UHGV virus genome: UHGV-0129547
Source of the DNA: a virus
Reading direction: 5' to 3' (one strand)
Length of the DNA: 19,700 bases
Positions 83 to 9,266 of the stretch are shown here, one piece after another. A program made the position numbers and the translations under genes. Under the pieces are notes generated by a model that saw nothing but the letters and a program-made list of their open reading frames with translations, was not told the origin of the DNA and did no database searches. Within the stretch, counting starts at the first letter, position 1. Each line of letters begins with the position of its first letter.

Positions 83-796
83 TCAATAATCAAGCCCTTG
101 CCTGGATACATATCTGTCTGGCGGGAAGCCATAATAGCGGTGAAATACAGAAATAAAGTAGGACCTGCTTGAATAACCGCATTTTTCTGCTATAGCCTGT
201 CCATATCCATGCCGGGAACATAACATATTTACAGCAACACGCATCCGCTCTTCCAGCAACAAGCGACTGAACATGCCCCCTTCATTTTTCAGTTTTGTCT
301 TTAACAAACTCTCACTCATATGCAACTGTAGAGCAATCGCACCAAGCGTCCAGCTTGCTGATATATCTGTCTGAATTATCGCCCTGACTTTGGCACTTAT
401 GCTGGATAAACATCCACTTAAAAACAATGACATCCGTTCATCTGTTTCAAACAGAGACAGGCAGGCCATCATAAGAAACATATCCGTGGCCTCTCCGGAA
501 AATCCCTGGCTGGTAATTAAAGCCGCAGCCAACGCAGGATTGTTGGGTTCCAGCAACAGGTAAAGCGGAATGTCAGTCAGACGAGTCCTCGTCAGCTTAT
601 GCTGACTTTCCAGATATTGACTTACGACGGATTCGCTTATATCGACAATTTTAACTTTGCCATAATGCATAAGGAAAAGCTCCCTGATGCATTTGGTGGC
701 CAGAACAACTGAGCCTGGCTTAAGTGACAACGTATCCTTTTCAAGAAAAATATTAATTGGGGAGCAAACCATGGTAACTGAACAGACAACAGCCAT
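83..796 (-). CDS. AraC/XylS-family transcriptional regulator (AppY/EnvY-like)
   Basis: 237-aa ORF; C-terminal AraC-type HTH signature (...IAEKCGYSSRSYFISVFHRYYGFPP...); N-terminus (MAVVCSVTMVCSP...) resembles prophage-borne AppY/EnvY-type regulators from memory. Confidence 0.8.
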   Translation of the reverse strand: MAVVCSVTMVCSPINIFLEKDTLSLKPGSVVLATKCIRELFLMHYGKVKIVDISESVVSQYLESQHKLTRTRLTDIPLYLLLEPNNPALAAALITSQGFSGEATDMFLMMACLSLFETDERMSLFLSGCLSSISAKVRAIIQTDISASWTLGAIALQLHMSESLLKTKLKNEGGMFSRLLLEERMRVAVNMLCSRHGYGQAIAEKCGYSSRSYFISVFHRYYGFPPDRYVSRQGLDY

Positions 797-918: not shown

Positions 919-944
919 AATAAAAAGCCTTCAGGACTGAAGGC
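919..944 (-). terminator. Putative Rho-independent terminator (minus strand)
   Basis: Hairpin GCCTTCA-GGAC-TGAAGGC at 927-944 followed on the minus strand by a T-run (plus-strand ATAAAAA at 920-926). It overlaps the last codons of the 65-aa ORF. Confidence 0.4.
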
Positions 945-1128
945 GTCTGTAACAACCGCACTGATAGTCTGCCAGACCCGCCATAACAAGCTGGGTCAGT
1001 ATTAACTGGCAGCGTTCGCGTGAAAGGTAAGTATTCTGCGCAATCTCCCCGACTGTCGCCGGTTCGGTAACGCTTAATTCATCAAACACAACTCTGGCGG
1101 TTTCTGTCATATCCTGCTGTTTCAGCAT
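931..1128 (-). CDS. Small hypothetical protein (65 aa), possibly winged-helix-like
   Basis: ORF with a plausible SD (GGAAAGGG about 10 nt upstream of the ATG at 1128); segment TVGEIAQNTYLSRERCQLILTQLVMAGL looks HTH-like. No confident family assignment. Confidence 0.4.
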   Translation of the reverse strand: MLKQQDMTETARVVFDELSVTEPATVGEIAQNTYLSRERCQLILTQLVMAGLADYQCGCYRRLQS

Positions 1129-1251
1129 GTCTTTTTACCCTTTCCGGTTAACGTGACATACCAATAACTCTTGTCTAAAAAGCCAGCAAGATAAAAAGCC
1201 AGTATTCACGACCACCAGCGTGTTTACTGTACTGCACCAAGTTTACAGGTA

Positions 1252-1277
1252 CAAAAAACCCGCTCAGTGGCGGGTTT
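1252..1277 (-). terminator. Rho-independent terminator downstream of the 205-aa ORF
   Basis: Stem CCCGC(1259-1263)/GCGGG(1270-1274) with a 6-nt loop; on the minus strand the hairpin is followed by TTTTTTGT (plus-strand A-run 1253-1258). A weaker T-run also follows on the plus strand. Confidence 0.55.
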
Positions 1278-1406
1278 AAGTTGTGTGGCGAAGTAACCAC
1301 TCTTAACACACTAATAGCATTTTTGTTATAACACAAGTAGCTCATTCAGTATTTTTAGAATCTTGACTTTCTTAAGCACGGCGAACTCTGAATACCAAAC
1401 ATAAAA

Positions 1407-2024
1407 TCAATTATCTTCCAGGCCGGATGCTATCAACGAAAGCCTCTCAAAAAACGCTGTAGCAGCCTTGTCCAAAGTTGAATAAGTACTGTATTCTCCG
1501 TGTTCGGGACCAACCACTACCCATGGTCGTCTTTTTGGGATTCGGGACTTCTCAGAAATCACTGTTCCAGATATACCAATATCAATTGTTACACCTGTTA
1601 TTATTTTCTCTTCATCTCTTTCCCTGAACTCAATTGCCATAAATGCCGTTTTTTTTCGTTTCCCGTTTTTAAAAAAATCAAATAAAGCAAAGCGATGCTC
1701 ATTAAAATCAACACCCCATCGTCCTTCAGGATAAAGGGCATGAAAGTTGTCATTTACGCTCTGCATCGTCTCATAAGCTTTAACTTCTAAATCTCCATAG
1801 TGCATAGATACCGCGCAGGAGTCACTGGGTAACTGTATTTTCCCAAGATTGAAAACCTTTACTGCTCCAGAACTATGGCATCTTGCCCGCAATTTATCCC
1901 CATTTATACTAATCGGAGAAATATTCCTTAATGTTCCGGGCTGGCTCCCTCCTAAGTAAACGACTGTTAAAGATTGCTTATTTTCAATTGCATCAACTAA
2001 TACATGCTCTACATTTTTACCCAT
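1407..2024 (-). CDS. Hypothetical protein (205 aa from the preferred start), accessory gene immediately downstream of Q
   Basis: Long ORF in an AT-rich segment. Preferred start is the ATG at 2024-2022, preceded by GGGAGG with a 5-nt spacer; the ORF-track start at 2051 has no SD. No recognised family; a weak WYL/SH3-like pattern in the N-terminal 60 residues is speculative. Confidence 0.6.
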   Translation of the reverse strand: MGKNVEHVLVDAIENKQSLTVVYLGGSQPGTLRNISPISINGDKLRARCHSSGAVKVFNLGKIQLPSDSCAVSMHYGDLEVKAYETMQSVNDNFHALYPEGRWGVDFNEHRFALFDFFKNGKRKKTAFMAIEFRERDEEKIITGVTIDIGISGTVISEKSRIPKRRPWVVVGPEHGEYSTYSTLDKAATAFFERLSLIASGLEDN

Positions 2025-2099
2025 AATAACCTCCCAATGAACAGGTATCATCAGGAGGTTATAATAAAATATGATTATTTACTTTGATTGAATTTATTA

Positions 2100-2471
2100 C
2101 TATATGTAACAATCAATTTCTAAAGATACCCCCAACATTGCCAGACAACCGTCAATAAACCCTTCAGCTTTCTGCAGTCTGATAACAACCTGATTAAGTG
2201 ATATCCCCAGTTTTACCCCCAACACCCGTAATGTAACCCCATACACATAATACATTTCCAGTAATTCGTATTGATACGGTTCCTTTTTCTTAAGAACTGT
2301 CATCGCAGAGCTAATGATCAGGCCATCGTCATCGCTACATTGCGGGCGGGATTTTACTTTCGAAGGAATTAATCCCTTAAAACCTGCAGCAACAGATGAC
2401 CATTCCACATCCTCGTGATTATTTGCCACCCATGCCCCCCAACGCTCAAGAACCATCTGAATATCACGCAT
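2100..2471 (-). CDS. quuD: Late-gene antiterminator Q (QuuD-like)
   Basis: From the internal start, the protein begins MRDIQMVLERWGAWVANNHEDVEWSSVAAGFKGL..., matching the N-terminus of DLP12 QuuD / phage-82-type Q from memory. GGAG lies 8 nt upstream of the ATG at 2471. Sits downstream of rusA-ylcG as in DLP12. Confidence 0.85.
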   Translation of the reverse strand: MRDIQMVLERWGAWVANNHEDVEWSSVAAGFKGLIPSKVKSRPQCSDDDGLIISSAMTVLKKKEPYQYELLEMYYVYGVTLRVLGVKLGISLNQVVIRLQKAEGFIDGCLAMLGVSLEIDCYI

Positions 2472-4155: not shown

Positions 4156-4662
4156 TTAGTCTGCCAAGTCTTCCTCCGTCACAACTGGGTAATTCCAAAT
4201 ATCAAAAAAAGCTATAGCCTCCTGCCATTTGTTCCATAAGTTATCAAGTACTTGTGTAGGTTCCGTACTTTTAAAAACAGAAACAGCCGCATCACCGTTA
4301 TGAACTTCCTCGTACAGTTCCATTATTAGCAGATTAACAAAGTACTGTTTCAACATTAATGCCTGATTACCTTCTTTCTGCTGGCTATCCTGCTTGATGA
4401 TCTCCATCGCCCGTACCAGGCACCTGATGATATCCGCTGCATCATTAACGCTCCATTCAGATCCGCGCTTATCTTTAGCTGATGTATTGGCTCTCTCAGC
4501 GCAAGCCTTTAAAGACTCATAAAGGTAAACTCTATTTTGTAGCTGCAGCGCTTTTTTTGACGTGTACCAACTTGCAAGCGCCGACCCCGCTGCGGCTAAT
4601 GTGCCAAACGCAGAAATGCCTGCTGCTATTGCACTTAAGTCGGCACTGTCAAAGTTCCACAT
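4156..4662 (-). CDS. Hypothetical membrane-anchored protein (168 aa), accessory gene
   Basis: ORF in an AT-rich segment; N-terminal hydrophobic stretch (LSAIAAGISAFGTLAAAGSALASW) suggests one TM helix or signal anchor; the rest is charged and helix-like. Separated from the antirepressor gene by a terminator. No recognised family. Confidence 0.55.
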   Translation of the reverse strand: MWNFDSADLSAIAAGISAFGTLAAAGSALASWYTSKKALQLQNRVYLYESLKACAERANTSAKDKRGSEWSVNDAADIIRCLVRAMEIIKQDSQQKEGNQALMLKQYFVNLLIMELYEEVHNGDAAVSVFKSTEPTQVLDNLWNKWQEAIAFFDIWNYPVVTEEDLAD

Positions 4663-8696: not shown

Positions 8697-9236
8697 TCAT
8701 ATTGCCCCCAGCATGGTGGTGACCATCGCCATCAGTGGACCAGCCAAATCCGGGTCCACACGAAACATCGACACAATGCCTTCACTCATCTCCTTCAGTT
8801 TCTGGTGGCGTGGTGCGTTGAGAATGACAGCCTGTTTTGCCTCACTGAGTTCCTTTTCCATTTCAGCCAGCCGAGCCATGAAGCTATCCTGCTCAACCAG
8901 GTGGCCGCGATATTTCAGCGGTAGTACTGCCAGAATTGCTGGAGTCAGTTCACGCACGTTATTTCGGTATTTTTCAGAATCGAATTTGTTATCGAGAAAG
9001 CGGAACAGCTTCTGGCGTGCACGACTGACATCATCAGAAAAATCGATAGTGCCGCCGCCCTGTGCTCGATACTCATTCACAATGAGTGCGGCAACGACAT
9101 CCTGATTATCTACAGCCGACCAGGCGCGGATGGCATCACGGATTTTTTCGTGGCCTGGCACCTGTTTTATTTGAGAACGATTTATCACCGCAGTCGGGAT
9201 AAATCCGCTAGTCTGTTGGTATGTAAGTGGTTGCAT
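8697..9236 (-). CDS. YdaT-like protein (Rac-type, cII position)
   Basis: Contains ...RAQGGGTIDF... and ...LTPAILAVLPLKYRGHL..., resembling Rac prophage YdaT (QGGG and IPAILAILP motifs) from memory; located downstream of the Cro-like ydaS-type gene. Start at 9236 or 9242. Confidence 0.65.
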   Translation of the reverse strand: MQPLTYQQTSGFIPTAVINRSQIKQVPGHEKIRDAIRAWSAVDNQDVVAALIVNEYRAQGGGTIDFSDDVSRARQKLFRFLDNKFDSEKYRNNVRELTPAILAVLPLKYRGHLVEQDSFMARLAEMEKELSEAKQAVILNAPRHQKLKEMSEGIVSMFRVDPDLAGPLMAMVTTMLGAI

Positions 9237-9266
9237 AGTCATTGCCTTATCAGTTAACGCCGCAGT

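Follow-up and report, generated by a model that had tools for sequence, protein, structure and literature searches.

Two questions are raised by the gene that lies directly after antiterminator Q in this prophage: what its protein does, and from which promoter it would be made. The gene, ORF205, encodes a stand-alone WYL-domain protein of 205 aa at positions 1407-2024 on the minus strand of the window (the whole 19,700-nucleotide stretch analyzed, UHGV virus genome UHGV-0129547). Its stop codon occupies 1407-1409, and it corresponds to WP_000360285.1 in E. coli S88. The start was assigned to the ATG at 2024, as in the PGAP call, which likewise gives 205 aa. An in-frame ATG at 2051 was rejected because it is out of frame in a diverged allele and disagrees with PGAP. 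A Shine-Dalgarno (SD) sequence, GGGAGG, is found at 2035-2030, 5 nt 5' of the ATG, and 75 nt separate this ATG from the stop codon of Q. The GC content is 39.8% in ORF205 and 25.3% in the Q-ORF205 spacer, compared to 45.8% in the window. The AT-rich ORF with a GGGAGG SD about 75 bp past the Q stop, as described in a previous sequence-only reading of this DNA, is thus present in all its elements, on the minus strand.

Judging from its conservation, ORF205 is a real prophage gene, conserved but uncharacterized. This is because its dN/dS is 0.23 at a dS of 0.80 (NG86, against a 72%-identical allele occupying the same slot in other prophages), because it has 491 related clusters at E<=1e-3 among 1.84 billion representative proteins searched, and because it matches phrog_8498 over its full length (E 1.6e-125). 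Most of the matched clusters comprise proteins of 190-200 aa that align to ORF205 from end to end, and full-length conservation of the family, for which genome collections were also scanned with a 14-sequence alignment, extends across phyla. The claim that the protein had no recognizable family therefore holds only in that the family is uncharacterized, since the family itself is sizeable. One or the other allele was present in about 75 of 5426 genomes, and the diverged allele was located in an O113:H21 Stx2 prophage.

The AlphaFold2 model of ORF205 (mean pLDDT 85.9) shows a confident two-domain fold. Residues 1-66 (1827-2024, minus strand) form an N-terminal helix and, from residue 19, a predicted Sm/SH3-like five-stranded beta-barrel as in the WYL domain superfamily (PF13280), carrying the motif YLGGSQPGtlRnISP. 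ORF205 itself scores 16.3 bits against PF13280, below the gathering cut-off of 21.8, and two family members, P0156 (24.3) and P0141 (22.3), exceed it. The family profile also matches DriD (E 1e-4) and CapW (95% in hhalign). The weak WYL/SH3-like pattern noticed earlier at the N-terminus is therefore real. When E. coli CapW was aligned to ORF205 with hhalign, the ssDNA-pocket residues R184 and R200 corresponded to R46 and K62. The binding pocket appears to differ from that of CapW, because S158 is aligned with the invariant G25 and R180 with a gap.

Residues 85-205 (1410-1772, minus strand) constitute the C-terminal domain, which has an alpha-beta5-alpha fold, contains the conserved motifs FKNGK and RPW, and includes a disordered insert spanning roughly residues 134-167. 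Nothing structurally close to this domain was found, and it displays neither catalytic-looking invariant residues nor an effector-like fold. Structure and profile analysis of the protein, as proposed earlier, found a WYL barrel and a C-terminal domain lacking known relatives. None of the defense-effector or defense-system models in PADLOC-DB v2 matched ORF205, whose WYL domain gave only weak matches to Cas-associated signaling models (E 0.0016-0.007). The BFVD viral structure library yielded nothing at E<=1e-3.

WYL domains have lately been recognized as the sensors of ssDNA through which CBASS, BREX, DdmDE and non-SOS damage responses are turned on. ORF205 is shown here to comprise a WYL ligand-binding domain of the DriD/CapW/BrxR type without the HTH or WCX domains of WYL transcription factors: Pfam, NCBIfam and PHROGs gave no HTH match, and WCX is absent after the WYL domain. 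While CapW, BrxR, DriD and PafBC are wHTH-WYL-WCX proteins of about 290-330 aa, with such regulators placed upstream of a defense operon, ORF205 has 205 aa, a different C-terminal fold, and stands as a solitary prophage gene. Similarity to the Cas13d accessory protein WYL1 and to CRISPR-associated WYL proteins is limited to the barrel, as WYL1 has an RHH domain and ORF205 has no CRISPR locus nearby. Lacking HTH and WCX, ORF205 cannot act by ligand-gated DNA binding as those regulators do. By analogy with DriD, CapW, BrxR and PafBC, its WYL domain may bind ssDNA or a short oligonucleotide, a ligand assignment to which we would give an even chance. Without a DNA-binding output, the protein would act in trans through its C-terminal domain, by oligomerization or by binding a partner.

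The genomic context of ORF205 relatives is informative regarding this possible function. In a P2-like Gilliamella prophage, the homologue belongs to an operon divergent from cox that contains the C repressor, the ORF205 homologue, a 140-aa gene and the integrase. Elsewhere it overlaps a repressor-like gene (L011), adjoins a CI/S24 repressor (Shewanella), or has GmrSD_N and NERD genes as neighbors (L008), and membrane-anchored variants exist (P0140 and P0156). All-against-all neighbor clustering of 24 loci revealed no conserved partner gene; the contigs with P0011 were too short to show its neighbors. Confined to a few marine lineages, and lacking in the window, is a "domain X" that is fused to the protein (P0139, P0091 and phage PY3) or encoded next to it (L012). 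Genes STM14_3218-3220 of Salmonella Gifsy-1 (PMC9879122), an immunity-region cargo of similar size, were considered and discarded, as they could not be linked to ORF205 by sequence.

Phage lambda rexAB and P2 old and tin are exclusion genes expressed in the lysogen. ORF205 relatives occupy equivalent places, in the P2-like C-to-int operon and beside CI, although rexAB, old and tin have no sequence or fold relation to ORF205 and the E. coli gene lies outside the immunity region. The location of relatives in repressor operons or beside GmrSD_N and NERD genes suggests a role in the lysogen or in defense. Since ORF205 carries a WYL sensing domain with no DNA-binding part and is placed between Q and the late promoter, it is best seen as a probable factor in phage-host conflict and not as a gene of the late operon. 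The best overall explanation, which we advance tentatively and at somewhat less than an even chance, is that this cargo of the Q-pR' interval is an ssDNA-sensing WYL protein that protects the lysogen. It would sense ssDNA from foreign DNA or from a replicating phage and respond by superinfection exclusion or abortive defense; the defense role as such is possible but doubtful.

How ORF205 might be expressed is relevant to any such role. The gene has the same orientation as Q, no terminator-like site was detected between the two, and no promoter on the ORF205 strand passed a consensus scan, the Q-ORF205 spacer included. The lack of a scan-passing promoter, together with the co-orientation with Q, fits expression in the lytic phase rather than in the lysogen. 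In the mRNA, a 15-bp hairpin at 2026-2062 (minus strand), presumably a translational gate, pairs the whole SD (2035-2030) and extends to 2 nt before the AUG. Its predicted stability is -21.2 kcal/mol (z -4.15, with 0 of 200 shuffles as stable). The diverged allele maintains the hairpin (-17.7 kcal/mol, z -4.8): its changes affect one side of a pair and create or replace G.U pairs, which can form only in RNA of this strand. Early-right operon read-through would transcribe ORF205 with Q, and the full-length 5' leader would then keep translation low. A weak promoter-like site read by eye at about 2082-2061 (ATCAAA-16-TATTAT, 8/12) could instead initiate transcription within the hairpin's 5' arm, freeing the SD and allowing low expression in the lysogen.

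The strongest competing explanation is a counter-defense decoy, which we consider rather unlikely. ORF205, made together with Q upon induction or infection, would soak up the ssDNA signal or heterodimerize with host WYL regulators, so that the CapW (CBASS) and BrxR (BREX) repressors stay on their operators and defense is not boosted. In favor of the decoy, a WYL sensor module devoid of DNA-binding output is encoded 75 nt 3' of Q on the same strand, and no terminator-like site was detected separating the two. Selective pressure for it exists, since CapW-dependent CBASS induction, which needs ssDNA binding by WYL, lowers lambda prophage yield about 100-fold (PMC11662680). However, the reported affinities of CapW WYL for ssDNA are micromolar (PMC11662680), and a sponge would therefore need high expression, yet the SD of ORF205 is locked in a hairpin of -21 kcal/mol. 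Also against the decoy, relatives reside in lysogenic (repressor/integrase) operons, some being membrane-anchored, and relatives in phages are scarce: none in BFVD, and only two records by tblastn in the "phages" collection, one from a P2-like temperate phage and one from a cyanophage of 209 kb whose lifestyle is not recorded.

A combined formulation, in which a stripped-down phage WYL sensor blinds host CBASS/BREX-type WYL regulators or is by itself a single-gene, ssDNA-triggered exclusion system, and in which the SD-sequestering leader would insulate its translation from lytic read-through, seems to us rather unlikely as a whole. A phage WYL module without DNA-binding output is in any case a candidate to disturb the ssDNA alarm or to reuse this cue for exclusion. 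If the decoy were true, it would be the first counter-defense directed against the alarm signal instead of the effector, and in either role the protein would enlarge the set of factors known in phage-host signaling.

PsiB is an inhibitor of RecA. Modulation of RecA/SOS or of prophage induction is an improbable third explanation, in which the WYL domain would again bind ssDNA, the C-terminal domain would bind RecA (in a PsiB-like manner), a repressor or an antirepressor, and ORF205 would tune the lysis-lysogeny switch.

It was also proposed that ORF205 has pR' on one side and a tR'-like terminator on the other and is thus carried on a short transcript, constitutive in the lysogen and boosted by Q. 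This was not unreasonable, as pR' directly follows Q in lambda, H-19B and Sp5, and a hairpin with a T-run does come after ORF205, at 1277-1253. The position of pR' makes this explanation very improbable. Window positions 1308-1248 are homologous (82% identical) to the pR' transcript start of Stx phages H-19B and Sp5. The Sp5 pR' transcription start site (TSS) was mapped by dRNA-seq, and a Term-seq 3' end is also published (PMC7547250). On the Sakai sequence, these data place the TSS at the bracketed A of TAAG[A]GTGG, 7 nt past TATCAT (PMC7547250), and counting the 258-nt distance from this TSS leads to the final T of the tR' T-run. By positional homology with Sp5, the predicted pR' core of the window spans 1301-1313 (minus strand), the -10 TAGTGT occupying 1313-1308 and +1 falling near A1301, to within some 3 nt. 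The TAnnnT-N6-A architecture is common to eight loci, although the predicted -10 (TAGTGT) and -35 (TTGTGT) associated with this class of Q (class A, below) are poor matches to consensus.

The initial-transcribed motif of pR', TAAGAGTGGTTAC, the -10 and the Q-class upstream element are all contained in 1336-1297, 3' of ORF205, and the motif has a single copy in the window. Homology with Sp5 and H-19B, Q-class covariation and the single motif copy thus contradict a pR' between Q and ORF205. The prophage with an empty slot (L002), in which the pR' block comes directly after Q, and the spacer without a scan-passing promoter argue in the same direction. Since pR' is 3' of ORF205, nothing supports constitutive transcription of the gene from pR' in the lysogen with a boost by Q.

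The supposed strong terminator after ORF205 turns out to belong to the pR' leader, as its first hairpin. This hairpin (AAACCCGC/GCGGGTTT plus T6; 1253-1277, minus strand) covers nucleotides +25 to +49 of the transcript predicted from pR', because homology sets +1 at about 1301. It is stable (-13.8 kcal/mol, z -3.3, with 0 of 200 shuffles as stable) and is maintained with compensatory changes in L040, L041 and L005, being present also in Sp5, H-19B and DLP12. It lies 130 nt past the ORF205 stop codon, and would be the first terminator for any transcript leaving ORF205, whose only 3' terminator thus belongs to the pR' leader. The promoter-plus-hairpin motif recurs in all related loci read, those outside class A all lacking ORF205, and the block containing it was matched in thousands of genomes. 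A second terminator-like hairpin with a T-run (1193-1219, minus strand), obtained by consensus scan, is weak alone (-7.4 kcal/mol, z -0.9). Apart from the truncated tRNA (below), Rfam gave only a sub-threshold match to STnc130, on the opposite strand over the leader hairpin, which was dismissed. The short RNA predicted from the pR' leader would be about 49 nt, against 66 nt for the prophage sRNA HnrS (PMC13502914), a possible counterpart that was compared by length. We conclude that pR' lies 3' of ORF205 with hairpin 1253-1277 in its leader, the TSS being placed by homology, and have good confidence in the anatomy and transcription architecture as mapped.

That ORF205 is a decaying or non-functional remnant, as a few frameshifted database copies at A8/T7 runs (P0003 and P0006) and its rarity among complete E. 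coli genomes (about 1.4% carry it) might suggest, is scarcely credible in view of a dN/dS of 0.23 at dS 0.8, full-length conservation across phyla and a confident two-domain fold.

ORF205 is flanked by Q on one side and by the promoter and candidate binding site of Q on the other. Q (2100-2471, minus strand; 123 aa) belongs to the Q21/QuuD family (PF06530, E 1.5e-47) and matches the Q21 structures 6P18/6JNX (E 5.5e-10, phmmer against PDB). Its N-terminal half is common to many prophages, while its C-terminal, DNA-binding half (class A) was found only alongside ORF205: window positions 1950-2330 were present in 52 genomes, and the start of ORF205 was in 52 of 52. Across nine prophages, the Q proteins fell into three C-terminal classes that paired without exception with three upstream elements, and this covariation was used to assign the candidate Q-binding elements. 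The class A element, TTGTGTTATAACAAAAA (1320-1336, minus strand), includes the predicted -35 (1336-1331) and is identical in the window, L040 and L041, which share the class A C-terminus. In its place, class B has ACTAAyGCGgTmCGCA and class C, comprising L003, Sp5/H-19B and DLP12, has (G/A)TTTACrwmCGTAAAAA; the locus of O157 strain 7409 (O157:H7) is class C by its element alone, its Q being outside the comparison. Because ORF205 is always tied to one DNA-binding class of Q and the matching element, it hitch-hikes between the specificity protein and its site. The 3' spacer (1337-1406, minus strand), from the ORF205 stop to the late promoter, is non-conserved and part of the cargo module: most of it has been lost or has diverged in the L040/L041 allele, and genomes without ORF205 gave no match to it.

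Comparison with related prophages confirmed that the slot is variable. It is empty in L002 and otherwise holds a 148-aa gene, a 336-aa gene or an NA37 plus 404-aa pair (L003-L005), nmpC between quuD and the pR' motif in DLP12, or a CPBP/Abi-family gene in O157:H7. PADLOC gave no matches for four of these other cargoes. Features of morons were observed for ORF205, namely variable presence between homologous prophages and a GC content deviating from that of the window. ORF205 is best explained as cargo of a lambdoid prophage, a functional accessory gene in the slot that separates Q from the late promoter and binding site of Q. Of the two analogies drawn earlier for the position downstream of Q, nmpC is a true slot-mate, since it comes after the stop codon of Q and is in turn followed by the pR' motif with its leader hairpin, whereas stx, 3' of pR'-tR', occupies a different slot. 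Unlike nmpC and most other cargo (the 148-aa, 336-aa and NA37-pair genes), which are on the opposite strand, ORF205 and the O157:H7 CPBP gene are oriented as Q, and the SD-sequestering leader distinguishes ORF205 from nmpC and most other cargo. Stx phages share lineage and late backbone (tRNAs, SASA esterase and lysis genes) with the ORF205 prophage, but stx lies within the Q-dependent late transcript, whereas ORF205 is upstream of its start. Prophages of the QuuD/Q21 family, Stx2 prophages included, thus have a Q-to-promoter cargo slot distinct from the stx slot, its cargo being genetically locked between specificity protein and binding site. The slot map bears on predicting the expression timing of nmpC, CPBP/Abi-like genes and ORF205.

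The first ORF of the late unit (931-1128, minus strand) encodes a 65-aa TrmB-like winged-helix protein (phrog_331, E 6e-37) with weak TrmB/MarR matches, and is found in thousands of genomes without ORF205. It is followed by an AraC/YdeO-like regulator (83-796, minus strand; HTH_AraC E 2.3e-13, NCBIfam YdeO 3e-30, below cut-off) and by a tRNA with CAT anticodon (1-54, Rfam) that is cut by the window edge. In S88, two tRNA-Arg genes, a SASA esterase and lysis genes come after the AraC/YdeO-like gene.

The leftmost genes of the window all lie on the minus strand, in the order NinB-like, YbcO, RusA, Q, ORF205, a hairpin with a T6 run, a 65-aa gene, an AraC/YdeO-like regulator gene and a tRNA cut by the left window edge. 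Q (2100-2471) is a Q21/QuuD-type antiterminator (PF06530, E 1.5e-47; solved Q21 chains, E 5.5e-10). The ATG of ORF205 (2024-1407), with the SD GGGAGG 5 nt ahead of it, stands 75 nt past the Q stop, and the GC content of the ORF is 39.8% vs 45.8% for the whole window. The hairpin and T6 run are at 1277-1253 (-13.8 kcal/mol, z -3.3). Every feature described in the sequence-only reading (the ORF, its SD, the 75-nt gap to Q, the AT-richness and the hairpin plus T-run) was found in the window. Otherwise the window is unremarkable lambdoid prophage DNA that encodes integrase, a CI repressor with an S24 domain, O, P and an antirepressor-like protein. The corresponding stretch of E. coli S88 goes on to two tRNA-Arg genes, a SASA esterase and lysis genes; its late region is Stx-phage-like, without stx.

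ORF205 is a real gene. Non-conservation, a concern of that reading, is answered by an HMMER search run exhaustively over 1.84 billion representative proteins: 491 related clusters scored E<=1e-3, mostly 190-200 aa long and matching end to end, and they come from Gammaproteobacteria, Planctomycetota, Cyanobacteria, Bdellovibrionota and other groups. The match to phrog_8498 spans its full length, and PGAP names it "WYL domain-containing protein" or "hypothetical protein" (WP_000360285.1). Other E. coli prophages, an O113:H21 Stx2 prophage among them, have in this slot a second allele, whose protein is 72% identical; the pair shows dS 0.80 and dN/dS 0.23. Of 5426 complete E. coli genomes, about 75 have one or the other allele. 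A8 and T7 runs lie inside the gene at 1649-1656 and 1671-1677, and the reading frame of a few database copies (P0003, P0006) breaks at these runs, just past FKNG, which could reflect slippage, phase variation or homopolymer sequencing error.

The ORF had been proposed to lie between pR' and tR', and this was not borne out. In Sakai Sp5, the pR' start mapped by dRNA-seq lies 258 nt before the tR' 3' end found by Term-seq (PMC7547250). On the Sakai sequence, counting this distance back from the final T of the tR' T-run leads to the A in TAAG[A]GTGG, exactly 7 nt past the TATCAT -10. The predicted pR' of the window has the same architecture on the minus strand (TTGTGT at 1336-1331, a 17-nt spacer, TAGTGT at 1313-1308, six nt and A1301), which is common to seven further loci with the TAnnnT hexamer in register in each, and the motif is single-copy in the window. 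Homology to other prophages restarts at 1325-1308 and extends past the hairpin and into the 65-aa gene, and 1308-1248 is 82% identical to the DNA that directly follows Q in phage H-19B and Stx phages. In L002, a prophage locus with an empty slot, the conserved promoter/hairpin block lies 39 nt after Q.

Independent support for this placement comes from covariation with Q. Nine Q proteins share their N-terminal halves, and their C-terminal DNA-binding halves fall into three classes, each paired with a distinct sequence immediately ahead of the -10: TTGTGTTATAACAAAAA for class A (window, L040 and L041, the latter two carrying the diverged allele), ACTAAyGCGgTmCGCA for class B (L002, L005, L004) and (G/A)TTTACrwmCGTAAAAA for class C (Sp5, H-19B, L003, DLP12). 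The O157:H7 locus has the class-C element and is placed by the element alone, as its Q was not among the nine. Such covariation is the behavior expected of a Q-binding element, for which these sequences are candidates. Taken with the homology to the mapped Sp5 promoter, it argues that pR' (1336-1301) is downstream of ORF205, and hence that ORF205 sits between Q and pR' rather than between pR' and tR'.

By the same comparison, the hairpin at 1253-1277 would cover late-leader positions +25 to +49. The strong terminator claimed after the ORF is therefore present as a hairpin plus T-run, but as part of the predicted pR' leader and not as the end of a pR'-tR' interval holding ORF205. Since Sp5 has the same hairpin and T-run at pR' +25 to +49 (L039 870-894) and its published tR' 3' end at +258, a hairpin of this type is evidently read through, or else it serves some other purpose, for example pausing or Q loading. 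A product ending at the leader hairpin would measure about 49 nt here vs 66 nt for the prophage sRNA HnrS of Sp9/10/12.

The accessory-gene slot after Q proposed earlier, with nmpC of DLP12 among the examples, was confirmed, and its position relative to pR' is mapped here. The slot is empty in L002 and otherwise holds a 148-aa gene (L003 1804-2250), a 336-aa gene (L005 2089-3099), an NA37 nucleoid-associated-like gene and its 404-aa partner gene (L004 3836-6228), nmpC (DLP12), a CPBP/Abi-family intramembrane protease gene on the same strand as Q (O157:H7 strain 7409, L046 2558-3376) or ORF205 (2024-1407). None of the four cargoes compared with PADLOC models (148-aa, 336-aa, NA37-like and 404-aa) gave a match. 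The class-A Q 3' half was seen only with ORF205 (52/52 genomes); slot cargo appears to be trapped between the Q specificity domain and its cognate site, traveling with both. The class-C element GTTTACGATCGTAA codes for the final Q codons and stop in Sp5 and H-19B and is kept as non-coding DNA past the cargo in DLP12 (L044 4690-4800), L003 and O157:H7 (L046). From this difference, cargo seems to have entered the 3' end of an Sp5-like Q, leaving Q about 20 residues shorter.

Consensus scans of the spacer between Q and ORF205 found no terminator-like site and no promoter on the ORF205 strand upstream of the start codon, so read-through from the early-right operon would be the simplest source of its mRNA. 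A 15-bp leader hairpin (2062-2026, minus strand) pairs the whole SD (-21.2 kcal/mol, z -4.15, 0/200 shuffles as stable) and is kept in the diverged allele (-17.7 kcal/mol, z -4.8). In the hairpin the alleles differ by gains or losses of G.U pairs, which favors a structure formed by the RNA of this strand. An 8/12 promoter-like site read by eye in the leader (ATCAAA-16-TATTAT in the window, TGAACA-16-TACAGT in the other allele) might start RNA within the 5' arm of the hairpin and so free the SD. On the opposite (+) strand, inside the same hairpin, a strong 10/12 promoter-like site (2038-2065, TGAACA-16-TATAAT; TGAACG-16-TACTGT in the diverged allele) is directed into the Q 3' end and could give an antisense RNA against Q, like lambda paQ.

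The suspected WYL resemblance held up, as a PDB search with the family profile finds DriD (E 1e-4) by way of the motif YxGGSxPGxxRxIxP, and hhalign gives 95% probability against E. coli CapW. CapW contacts ssDNA through S158, R180, R184 and R200 (PMC11662680). R184 and R200 pair with R46 and K62 of ORF205, S158 pairs with an invariant glycine and R180 with an alignment gap; the predicted pocket would thus be kin to that of CapW but not identical. The AlphaFold2 model (93-sequence alignment) is confident, with two domains and a mean pLDDT of 85.9. No HTH is present in ORF205, which places it outside the wHTH-WYL-WCX regulator family. The viral structure library BFVD gave no significant match, and PADLOC returned weak Cas-associated WYL matches and nothing else. 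ORF205 is a WYL protein that is phage-borne, lacks an HTH and has a new C-terminal domain.

Across 24 loci of ORF205 relatives, many of them prophages or islands, no neighbor gene is conserved, which suggests that ORF205 works alone or with host factors. Homologues overlap a repressor-like gene (a MAG locus), converge with a CI/S24 repressor (a Shewanella prophage), adjoin an Ant antirepressor, are flanked by GmrSD_N and NERD genes or, fused to an extra domain, lie between integrase and a LexA-like repressor (Pseudoalteromonas phage PY3). In a P2-like prophage of Gilliamella sp. WF3-4 (L030 5200-8032), C repressor, homologue, an unknown 140-aa gene and integrase form one operon divergent from cox, the homologue and 140-aa gene being insertions that separate the C repressor gene from the integrase gene. 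Some relatives have a transmembrane helix or two WYL domains.

In some marine lineages (P0139, P0091) a domain of about 150 aa, of unknown function, is fused to the C-terminus, as in PY3 (L037 2597-3112); in Pseudoalteromonas luteoviolacea (L012 768-1223) it is a separate gene immediately downstream of the homologue. This fusion/fission pattern marks it as a likely functional partner of ORF205 relatives; it is absent from the window.

Elsewhere in the window, the 65-aa TrmB-like winged-helix gene (931-1128) and the AraC/YdeO-like regulator gene (83-796), both on the minus strand, are the first after the late leader and precede the phage tRNA genes; the regulator is presumably of the kind named Psr/PatE in EHEC prophages. 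The nin region holds a 168-aa gene of unknown function (4156-4662, phrog_1779), and a YdaT-toxin-family gene (8697-9242) occupies the cII position, immediately upstream of O.
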